Assembly: GCA_021325135.1 (NCBI GenBank)
Contig: JAJPHT010000051.1
Location: forward strand, 1-64,000
Source: Pseudomonadota bacterium
GTDB lineage: Archaea; Thermoplasmatota; SW-10-69-26; JACQPN01; JAJPHT01
DNA: 64,000 bases
Direction of reading: 5' to 3'
In this document: piece by piece, positions 30,083 through 62,429 of the stretch
Layout: every line of letters starts with the position of its first letter
Numbering within the stretch: position 1 is the first letter of the stretch
Notes under the pieces: model-generated
What the model saw: the letters and a program-made list of their open reading frames with translations, nothing else
Database searches by the model: none
What the model was told of the DNA's origin: nothing
Position numbers and translations under genes: made by a program

Positions 30083-30179
30083 CCGCCTCCGGCGGGGAAA
30101 CCCGCGAATCTCCGAATCTCAGAATCACCGTCGGAGATTCGGCGATTCGGAGATTCGTGGATCCCCCCGCCGGAGGCGG
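30083..30179. repeat. Intergenic palindrome, family A (GAATC/GATTC octamer core)
   Basis: 15-bp outer IR. The 48-nt core 30103-30150 matches 60828-60875 in inverted orientation at 45/48. Confidence 0.85.
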
Positions 30180-35480: not shown

Positions 35481-35484
35481 TCCT

Positions 35485-35591
35485 TGGTCAAGGGTCCAAA
35501 GAACGCGACGAGCGCAAAGAGCGCAAAGGACGCGACGAAAGAAAACTTGGCGACCTTGGCGCTCTTTGCGCTCGTCGCGTTCTTTGGACCC
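35485..35591. repeat. Family B palindrome: gene-less (MITE-like) copy of the GxxExxY element arms
   Basis: Arms 35485-35537 and 35550-35591 closely match the TIRs at 59230-59286 and 59755-59811; they are joined by a 12-nt loop. Confidence 0.85.
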
Positions 35592-58181: not shown

Positions 58182-58185
<4 letters not shown>

Positions 58186-59201
58186 GCGAAGCCCTGCTGG
58201 AGGTCGAGGACCTCAAGAAACACTTCCCCATCCGCGGCGGCTTCATCCGGCGCAACGTGAACCACGTGCGCGCCGTGGACGGCGTGTCCTTCGACATCCC
58301 GCAGGGCCAGACGTTGGGCCTCGTGGGCGAGAGCGGCTGCGGCAAGACCACCGTGGGCCGCACGCTGCTGCGCCTCACCGACCCCACCGCGGGGAGCATC
58401 CGCTTCCGCGGCCAGGAGATCGCCACCCTCTCGCGGCGCCGCATGCGCGAGCTTCGGCCCAAGATGCAGATCGTCTTCCAGGACCCGATGTCGAGCCTCA
58501 ACCCGCGCATGACGATCAAGCAGATCCTCACCGAGCCGCTGCGCCTCAACGGCGTCGGCCGCGACGCCGCGCACAAGCGCATCGTGGAGCTGCTGGAGAC
58601 GGTGGGCATGACGGCGGAGCAGGCCAACCGCTTCCCCCACGAGTTCTCCGGGGGCCAGCGCCAGCGCATCGGCGTCGCGCGCGCCCTCGCCCTCAACCCC
58701 GACTTCATCGTCCTCGACGAGCCCACGAGCGCGCTGGACGTCTCCGTGCAGGCGCAGGTGCTCAACCTCCTGAGCAGGCTCCAGAAGGAGCTGGACCTCA
58801 CCTACCTCTTCATCAGCCACGACCTCAGCGTGATCCGCCACCTCTGCGACGAGGTCGCCGTCATGTACCTGGGCCGCATCGTCGAGAAGGGCCCCGTGGA
58901 GAAGGTCTTCACCTCGCCGCAGCACCCCTACACGCAAGCGCTCCTCTCGGCCGTCCCCATCCCCGACCCCGAGACGCGCGCGAAGCGCATCATCCTCACC
59001 GGCGACGTGCCCAGCCCCGTGAACCCGCCCAAGGCCTGCCGCTTCCACCCGCGCTGCCCCCGCGCGCAGGCGATCTGCCGCGAGATCGACCCTCCCCTGG
59101 AAGCCAAGGAGGCCGGGCACCTCGCGGCGTGCCACTTCCCCGGGCCCCAGGAGAAGTGGCCCATCACGCAGACGCGCGAGGTCAAGGTGTCCGAGGGATA
59201 G
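58182..59201 (+). CDS. dppF: Peptide ABC ATP-binding protein
   Basis: [25 protein letters not shown]. Confidence 0.95.
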
Positions 59202-59229
59202 GCTTCTTGGCCACCGCCTTCGAGTTTTT

Positions 59230-59811
59230 TCTCTGGTCAAGGGTCCAAAGAACGCGATGAGCGCGAAGAGCGCCAAGGTCGCGACGAGCGGGGAACGACT
59301 TATGATCCGGCTTGCGCCCGCAGGGCGGTGCCCCGCGATTGGCTCCAGGACGCGGACGTCGAACTGCCGGCGGAGATCGAAGCGGCGGGAGCCGACGTGC
59401 TTGACGTCGCTTTCAGGGTCCACACCGCCATCGGGCCCGGCGCGCTGGAAAGCGTGTACCAGAAGTGCATGGCGCTCGGCCTCCGCAAGCGCGGCCGCGA
59501 GGTGGAGGAGAGGGTCTGGGTCGACGTCTCGTTCGAGGAGGAGATCATCGAGCGGGTGCTCCAGATCGACCTGCTCGTGGATGGCGCGGTCGTCGTCGAA
59601 ATGAAAGCGGTCGACACCCTCGCAGATGTCCACATGGCCCAGCTCGTCTCGTACTTGCGCCTCGGCCAACACCCGCTGGGCTACCTGCTCAACTTCCACG
59701 TCTCGCGGATGAAAGCCGGAATCCACCGGAGGATCAACAGTCGTGCCCTTCCCCCGTCGCGACCTTGGCGCTCTTTGCGCTCATCGCGTTCTTTGGACCC
59801 TTGACCAGAGA
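59230..59811. mobile_element. 582-bp TIR-bounded element carrying a GxxExxY nuclease gene
   Basis: 57-bp inverted repeats (59230-59286 / 59755-59811, one mismatch) enclose a TTATG promoter-like box and a single ORF. Confidence 0.75.
59328..59804 (+). CDS. GxxExxY protein (PD-(D/E)XK nuclease family)
   Basis: VHTAIGPGALESVY, IDLLVDGAVVVEMKA, AQLVSYL, GYLLNF. Confidence 0.95.
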   Translation: MPRDWLQDADVELPAEIEAAGADVLDVAFRVHTAIGPGALESVYQKCMALGLRKRGREVEERVWVDVSFEEEIIERVLQIDLLVDGAVVVEMKAVDTLADVHMAQLVSYLRLGQHPLGYLLNFHVSRMKAGIHRRINSRALPPSRPWRSLRSSRSLDP

Positions 59812-59881
59812 GGCAAGAAAAGACACCATTGACCCAAGACCCAAACGCAACCCCCAAGACCCAAGGCGCCTACCCAGAAGA

Positions 59882-62316: not shown

Positions 62317-62317
62317 A

Positions 62318-62429
62318 GGGGGGTTCGGGGGGCGAAGCCCCCTGACGTCTTGATCGTCGGATCAAAAACGAAAACGTCAGGGGGCTTCGCCCCCTGAAAC
62401 CCCCTCGGATCGCCGCGCTGCGGCGCGGC
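62318..62429. repeat. Intergenic palindrome, family C
   Basis: GGGGGCGAAGCCCCCTGACGT...ACGTCAGGGGGCTTCGCCCCC; inverted homolog of 38472-38586. Confidence 0.8.

Follow-up and report, generated by a model that had tools for sequence, protein, structure and literature searches.

Does a small gene that lies between long inverted repeats form one mobile unit with these repeats, and if so, what moves it? The question is raised by a locus of 582 bp at positions 59230-59811 of the window, by which we mean the whole stretch of 64,000 nucleotides that was analysed. A reading made from the sequence alone had taken this locus for the autonomous partner of a pair of elements, driven by a restriction-like nuclease.

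The window (contig C29) belongs to an archaeal MAG, G000, of 3.77 Mb with 71.6% G+C and 51 contigs, which is 94% complete. Archaea_SRP RNA scored above the Rfam gathering threshold in G000, a threshold that among the control genomes only archaea reached, and EarA-like regulators are encoded in the genome as well. In the window itself the Rfam scan gave no RNA gene. G000 was compared with four genomes of the same genus, G001, G002, G003 and G004; all compared genomes are MAGs and 86-99% complete. A second strain-level assembly was sought with the exact 158-aa protein of the locus, and none was on record.

Architecture of the filled cassette

The features of the locus, together with a gene-less relative elsewhere in the window, were as follows.

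58182-59201, plus strand: upstream flanking gene, ATP-binding subunit of an oligopeptide-type ABC transporter (oppF-like); anchor for the comparison of orthologous sites
59202-59229, no strand: probable left remnant of an older CCAAGA/TTCTTGG-family palindrome, with a CTTCTTGG word, judged by alignment to the intact G003 palindrome at the orthologous site
59230-59286, plus strand: left arm of the Family A cassette; outer terminal module TCTCTGGTCAAGG, then five 9-nt words of the CGCNAAG type
59287-59327, plus strand: internal leader of 41 nt; weak continuation of the inverted repeat (GGGGAA), contains the TTATGATCCGG box
59328-59804, plus strand: GxxExxY / PDDEXK_3 gene, 158 aa; GTG start, TGA stop; E41, D81, E91 and K93 intact
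59755-59811, plus strand: right arm of the Family A cassette; reverse complement of the left arm, 56/57
59812-59870, no strand: probable right remnant of the same older CCAAGA/TTCTTGG palindrome, with CCAAGAC words, judged by alignment to G003
about 35483-35591, no strand: gene-less Family A palindrome (miniature); stem of ~45 bp, loop of 12-16 nt

The anatomy largely agreed with what had been noticed from the letters alone. The 57-nt inverted repeat is near-perfect at the reported coordinates, with 56 of 57 positions complementary and the arms 468 nt apart, and its phasing in 9-nt units is directly visible. The end of the ORF does lie inside the right arm, which encodes the last ~16 codons and the TGA stop, and the gene-less copy was found in the window at about 35483-35591. 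On the other hand, the cassette had been placed just after the end of an operon; instead it separates the oppF-like ATPase gene from a co-directional lipoprotein gene. The 37-nt core of the arm occurred four times in the window, compared with no occurrence in 100 shuffles. As single-stranded DNA the window miniature gave a folding energy of -55.6 kcal/mol (z = -13.7), and the 582-bp cassette can fold with a 57-bp closing stem.

The TTATG box that had been pointed out ahead of the GTG is present at 59299-59303, 25-29 nt upstream of the start. We considered it as an archaeal promoter and discarded the idea, because no AT-rich box recurs at a constant distance from the start in the other cassettes of the genus, which carry a GC-rich box instead. 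This box, approximately GTGATTCCCGGAGAAGG, is located between left arm and ORF and is common to cassettes of this archaeal genus (L003:1400-1420, L004:1400-1420, L002:1915-1935 on the minus strand, L123, L129, L174 and L175). It occurs with both cargo types, GxxExxY and the four-helix-bundle gene described below. The window cassette has a weaker version of it, TTATGATCCGG, at 59298-59308.

The GxxExxY protein

The 158-aa product matched PF13366 (PDDEXK_3) with an E-value of 2e-34 and 118.8 bits (cut-off 22), and TIGR04256 (GxxExxY) with 5e-33 and 114 bits (cut-off 35). Its name-giving motif reads G38-A-L-E41-S-V-Y44. Among 81 sequences E41, E91 and K93 were invariant and D81 was at least 90% conserved; all of them, including D81, are present here. 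An AlphaFold2 model based on the 81 sequences (pLDDT 83, pTM 0.80) showed an N-terminal pair of helices followed by a mixed sheet, with the arm-encoded tail of residues 145-158 disordered. Fold searches against the PDB gave weak matches, all of them to PD-(D/E)XK proteins, with a Foldseek E-value of 0.024 to Cas4. Fold comparison by VIA gave modest scores, with Z of 7.9 to 3ijm, 7.5 to BpuSI and 7.2 to BamHI; further PD-(D/E)XK matches, with Z no higher than 7.9, were lambda exonuclease and Hjc. The matches are generic for PD-(D/E)XK and indicate neither a single enzyme nor a specific activity. A search of PDB sequences for relatives was equally discarded; it returned only Dps, at chance level.

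The PF13366 match is the only ORF in the cassette, and no transposase of a recognised family lies within it. GxxExxY/PDDEXK_3 proteins form a large and often multi-copy family whose function is listed as unknown in a standard survey (PMC3424549).

Family A is multi-copy and mostly gene-less

The Family A arm core occurred 61 times in G000, which corresponds to 31 paired elements, 30 of them gene-less and one filled. The cores of the gene-less copies are 51-103 bp apart, and these copies come in two orientations that differ by a flip of the loop. Across G000, G001, G002, G003 and G004 the arm counts were 61, 0, 0, 1 and 0, the G003 match being weak with two mismatches. Contigs of the congeners often stop exactly at positions that carry Family A in G000 (G004 C220/C195, G003 C329/C80 and the start of G002:C69). 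Such ends are expected if the repeats break assemblies, and palindrome counts in MAGs are therefore lower bounds.

All miniatures carry an A.A (or T.T) mismatch in the stem, which is absent from the filled copy, and they form subfamilies with identical asymmetric arm differences at unlinked loci. The shared mismatch and the subfamily differences imply that miniatures were copied whole from a miniature founder, while the absence of the mismatch from the filled copy means that the present filled copy is not the direct parent of today's miniatures. The miniatures are thus not independent decays of the present filled copy.

The copies are intergenic and packed tightly against ORF ends. According to crude stop-to-stop gene calls, 12 lie between convergent, 17 between tandem and two between divergent neighbours, and miniatures are found in both orientations relative to the adjacent genes. 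The absence of a target-site duplication, already suspected from the single locus, extended to the flanks of all 31 copies and to the reconstructed empty junction (see below). TGAT was present within 40 nt to the left of nine and ATCA within 40 nt to the right of 12 of the 31 copies, compared with a background of ~5%. This is a 5-7-fold enrichment at Family A ends; none was seen left of Family B. The two motifs may be linked to the genus-wide TGATATCA word, either as a target or as an element end.

Two domain searches of G000 were negative: the 94%-complete genome yielded neither a Y1/RAYT transposase (PF01797) nor an RNase III domain (PF14622).

Paralogous genes and further palindrome families

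All four PF13366 genes of G000 are enclosed by inverted repeats, each of a different sequence, with 56/57 matching positions in C29, 57/57 in C30, 27/28 in C6 and 36/41 in C3. The four proteins are 34-45% identical, and all retain E41, D81, E91 and K93 while each has its own arm words. Three of the four repeat families also have gene-less copies. In the four congeners 14 of 16 PF13366 matches are flanked by repeats of similar words.

Family B, with its filled copy in C30 and CGAACCA words, had 40 arm matches in G000. The counts in G000 to G004 were 40, 1, 0, 0 and 0, where the G001 match is weak with three mismatches. Families A and B differ in their inner words and share an outer terminal motif, CTGGTCARG ... 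CYTGACCAG, seen for example at 59230-59242 of the window (A) and at L004:1338-1360 (B); their proteins are the closest paralogs (45% identical).

Family C comprises a filled copy at C6 with CGAATCTC words and gene-less copies. One gene-less palindrome of CGAATCTC words lies in the window at 30083-30179, and its outer sequence, CCGCCTCCGGCGGGGAA..., matches that of the C6 cassette; a second cognate miniature family is thereby represented in the window. The GxxExxY frame of the C6 cassette (L002:832-1950, minus strand) has no stop inside the cassette and runs for 372 codons through the arm, antisense to the neighbouring gene.

Family D palindromes have neither words nor a gene. A palindrome of this appearance, GGGGGGTTCGGGGGGCGAAGCCCCCTGACGT..., without phased words or an associated gene, is located at 62317-62405 of the window and has several copies in the genome. 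Inverted repeats also enclose two winged-helix genes of the EarA-like type (PF07381): L097:414-910 (G000:C18:15913-16409; E 4e-9, repeats 48/57) and L098 (G000:C6:48696-49408; E 2e-5, repeats 29/34). They may represent a third small cargo, or their repeats may be autoregulatory sites.

Among the congeners, the CACGAAG family of G002 (filled copy in C55) had arm counts of 0, 0, 22, 0 and 0 across G000 to G004, the CGCGATG cassette of G001 had only its own two arms and no further copies, and L135 of G003 is a gene-bearing copy of the CCAAGA/TTCTTGG family. The multi-copy Families A, B and CACGAAG are each confined to the genome that carries the cognate filled copy, apart from the weak single matches. 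Such co-occurrence by species does not alone separate a gene that drives its repeats from a gene that entered resident repeats. A strict rule of one gene for one family was ruled out by the CACAGAGG family, which has 18 arms, occurs in G002 only and has no cognate PF13366 gene in this 99%-complete assembly. It may be an orphan left after gene loss, a route that is suggested by a deletion in G002 at the site orthologous to C6 (see below), or it may be a sign that the gene is dispensable.

Signs of insertion, decay and replacement at orthologous sites

The cassette of the window was absent from the orthologous site in all four congeners. In G004 the flanking genes overlap without a spacer, in G001 there is a short plain spacer and in G002 other DNA. 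G003 has a different gene-less palindrome there, made of TTCTTGG/CCAAGA words. When positions 59230-59811 were excised in silico, the resulting junction GTTTTT|GGCAAGA... aligned with the inner part of the G003 palindrome. Because removal of exactly this segment restores similarity to G003 across the junction, the ends of the element are probably the ends of the repeat, with no duplication made. The short intergenic alignment indicates that the cassette is probably nested in an older palindrome.

A miniature site of Family A, C36:55673, was cleanly empty in G002, where two convergent stop codons overlap. Thus the search for filled and empty alleles that had been proposed for the locus turned up both among genomes of the same genus, in the form of the four congeners without the cassette and the empty miniature site.

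At the site orthologous to C6, G002 has kept the arms and has lost ~190 nt over the D..ExK core. This allele is a direct intermediate on the way from cassette to miniature. A related cassette is present in G002 at the C3 site (L118/L123, G002:C21:31019-31551). The proteins of the two genomes are 61% identical with a dN/dS of ~0.23 and a dS of ~1.4, while the flanks are 89-90% identical in nucleotides. This divergence would fit replacement or re-insertion better than simple vertical descent. The gene in G002 has the opposite orientation relative to the conserved flanks, which points to arm-mediated inversion or to re-insertion.

At five of seven Family A sites with conserved flanks, one or more congeners had a palindrome from another family:

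Window site: CCAAGA palindrome in G003
C2:41624: CACAGAGG palindrome in G002
C2:52588: GGRCTCNG palindrome in G002
C26:33913: GGGAC-word palindrome in G001
C36:59737: GACGARG palindrome in G001

With ~120-150 palindromes per genome over ~3,500 spacers, only a few percent of the spacers are occupied. Re-use of five in seven sites is, for this small sample, therefore far above independent placement. Either resident palindromes are preferred targets or a few gene ends are hot spots. A precedent for the former is the insertion of IS elements into REPs (PMC1525189).

A second cargo, the four-helix-bundle gene

PF05635 (S23p / 23S_rRNA_IVP) was absent from G000 and had nine matches in G001 to G004. 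Six of the eight that were examined lie inside word-array inverted repeats. One of them, G002:C49:4102-4574, is a gene for a four-helix-bundle '23S rRNA IVS protein' between GGRCTCNG arms. The GGRCTCNG family is the largest that we counted; all of its 150 arm matches among the five genomes were in G002. A palindrome population can thus accompany a gene that does not encode a nuclease, which shows that nuclease chemistry is not required for such a population. We think that two unrelated folds can serve as the loop protein, and that binding of words or hairpins with recruitment of host functions is the most economical common role.

Generality beyond the genus

Repeats around GxxExxY homologues had been predicted to be general. 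Besides the four of four genes in G000 and the 14 of 16 matches in the congeners, we examined 80 homologous loci, drawn from Acidobacteriota, Bacteroidota, Planctomycetota, Gemmatimonadota, Caulobacterales and other groups. A flanking repeat with a score of 14 or more accompanied 61% of them, compared with 1% of 289 windows displaced as controls. Two or more CRCNRAG words upstream, together with two or more of their complement downstream, were present at 49 of the 80 loci and at none of 293 controls. In the bacterial cassettes purine-rich words abut the start codon in the manner of a ribosome-binding site.

The closest proteins in a collection of 5.8 billion were 61% and 56% identical, and both have arms of CGCGAAG words related to Family A. 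On the contig of the 61% homologue (L165:1-780) copies of the arm are present in direct and inverted orientation and a gene-less palindrome adjoins the gene, an arrangement that looks nested or tandem. Similarity of arm word profiles had a mean cosine of 0.21 at protein identities of at least 70% and of 0.02-0.05 below, values which are descriptive only since the pairs are not independent. The related words in the closest homologues and the rise of word similarity with protein identity favor a unit in which protein and arms are inherited together.

What may move the cassette

We favor the view that the locus is a mobile cassette whose gene-less miniatures are propagated by its own word-binding protein, and we give this view about an even chance. 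It builds on the observed architecture and census, on the occurrence of gene and miniatures in the same species, on alleles of three kinds (filled, empty, deletion) and on protein and arm words being inherited together. The 582-bp unit would be one copy of a selfish cassette that is mobile now or was so recently, in which inverted arms of short phased words enclose a small gene whose product recognises these words. Internal deletion of cassettes would give rise to gene-less miniatures of ~100 bp, and these would multiply on their own with the cognate protein supplied in trans. New copies would land at gene ends without target duplication, often in or on resident palindromes. The catalytically intact PD-(D/E)XK nuclease may cut the arms while they form a hairpin or cruciform or are synapsed as a pair; host replication or repair would then complete the copying.

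Binding of the words, cleavage and the copying step are the parts that we infer. We know of no route by which a nuclease of ~130 aa would achieve strand transfer. The nuclease as the motor of mobility, as the sequence-only reading had it, is a conjecture that is weakened by the second cargo type. The pair of an autonomous and a non-autonomous element thus holds in so far as one family has 31 copies with a single filled one and as anatomy, polymorphism and co-inheritance fit; the part assigning the drive to the nuclease was not supported.

A different account is that the palindromes themselves are replicators moved by a host enzyme or some other enzyme, while the GxxExxY and four-helix-bundle genes are passengers in the loop, for example with functions in defence, as toxins or in addiction. 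We consider this unlikely, even though it readily accommodates two unrelated cargo genes in the same design, the multi-copy CACAGAGG family of G002 that has no gene, and the Family D palindromes that lack both words and gene. That a filled copy is found together with its family would follow automatically, as it would be expected if a gene had merely entered a resident palindrome. Yet arms and protein vary together, and the word type is the same in the nearest homologues. Furthermore, the paralogs are ancient (34-45% identical) and each stays with its own family, nothing points to recent hops between families, a candidate for the mobilising enzyme was not found (no Y1 transposase), and the deletion allele of G002 shows that gene loss can yield an orphan.

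Homing would be another way of spreading: alleles that are gene-less or empty would be cut by the nuclease and then converted by repair that uses the filled copy as template. Small PD-(D/E)XK homing endonucleases such as I-Ssp6803I exist and provide a precedent. Insertion without duplication and the replacement of different palindromes by each other at fixed sites are in line with homing, and so are the same-site cassettes of G000 and G002, which have diverged far more than their flanks and suggest replacement. However, 30 of 31 copies are unfilled with no second filled copy of Family A, and the miniatures bear diagnostic changes of their own. Homing into empty palindromes, which had been suggested for this locus, is disfavored by the unfilled copies and by paralogs that are only 34-45% identical and have their own arms. 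We regard it as improbable.

We also judge it very improbable that the arms act in RNA, where a long stem would insulate, process or silence the transcript and the protein would have nothing to do with the spread. The design does match the Coxiella IVS (PMC4990558), the cassette folds with a 57-bp closing stem and the bacterial words sit next to the start codon as a ribosome-binding site would. Nevertheless this leaves unexplained why 30 dispersed gene-less copies are confined to one species, the orientation of miniatures relative to adjacent genes is not fixed, and an RNase III domain was not found in G000; an IVS role of the RNase III type is unlikely here.

Finally, a chance juxtaposition of an ordinary gene and two repeat halves, for which nothing speaks except that repeats are common in G000, is practically negligible and already refuted by the controls (four of four genes in G000, 14 of 16 in the congeners, 61% of 80 loci against 1% of controls).

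A possible class of mobile elements

Extending the preferred view of a mobile cassette with its own word-binding protein, we tentatively propose that palindromes of word arrays with a GxxExxY gene or a four-helix-bundle IVS/Avd-like gene in the loop may be one undescribed class of mobile elements in archaea and bacteria. The protein would read the words, miniatures would ride along and palindromes resident at gene ends would give way to new copies without target duplication; the 23S rRNA IVSs would be members that landed in rRNA. The proposal is a real possibility, although we would not yet bet on it. If it is true, it adds a system of repeat plus enzyme that does without an HUH transposase, extends a REP-like genome architecture to Archaea and suggests where the intervening sequences of 23S rRNA came from. 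GxxExxY would gain a specific partner in DNA, namely the phased words in its arms, and this makes a hypothesis that can be tested directly at the bench. The turnover of palindrome families at the same gene ends also affects the evolution of operon spacers and 3' ends.

Comparison with known systems

In the searchable literature, with subscription journals outside its coverage, we found no description of this gene-in-palindrome cassette. Pairs of IS and MITE resemble it in their terminal inverted repeats and in miniatures that retain both ends and lose the gene, and a deletion intermediate was seen here. They are unlike it in that the cassette makes no target-site duplication, has no transposase of a known family and has much longer, internally periodic arms. 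With REP-targeting IS elements and with duplication-free elements such as IS200/IS605 and IS110 (PMC1525189) it shares insertion into or onto resident palindromes without duplication; it differs in that no Y1 transposase (PF01797) was found in G000.

The REPIN/RAYT systems, or REPtrons (PMC3116915, PMC3337134, PMC3733652), likewise combine a single-copy gene, enclosed by its own repeat in inverted copies, with tens of intergenic gene-less palindromic doublets; they too have several pairs of gene and repeat per genome and lineage-specific populations. On the other hand, the enzyme here is a PD-(D/E)XK nuclease of ~130-160 aa and not a Y1 HUH transposase, and the arms are phased arrays of 7-10-nt words instead of one REP hairpin of 20-40 bp. 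In addition, the cassette is polymorphic among species, has an alternative cargo that is not a nuclease and resides in an archaeal host.

The IVS of Coxiella combines a terminal stem of 28 bp with heptamer repeats (GACAGAT) and an S23p ORF in the loop, and has been described as a selfish element with an unknown mode of spread (PMC4990558). The 23S rRNA IVSs of Coxiella and Leptospira (PMC4990558) share with the cassette a size of ~0.4-0.6 kb, a stem of terminal inverted repeats, tandem words beside the ORF and the position of this small ORF in the loop, and the congeners of G000 carry PF05635 genes in the same kind of word palindrome. Unlike them, the cassette is located between the genes of an ABC-transporter ATPase and a lipoprotein and not in helix 25 or 45 of 23S rRNA, its cargo is a nuclease and not S23p, and it is accompanied by dozens of gene-less copies. 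IVSs are excised by RNase III, which was not found in G000. Taken together, REPIN/RAYT and the 23S rRNA IVS are the closest known systems, and the cassette departs from each of them in a defining feature.
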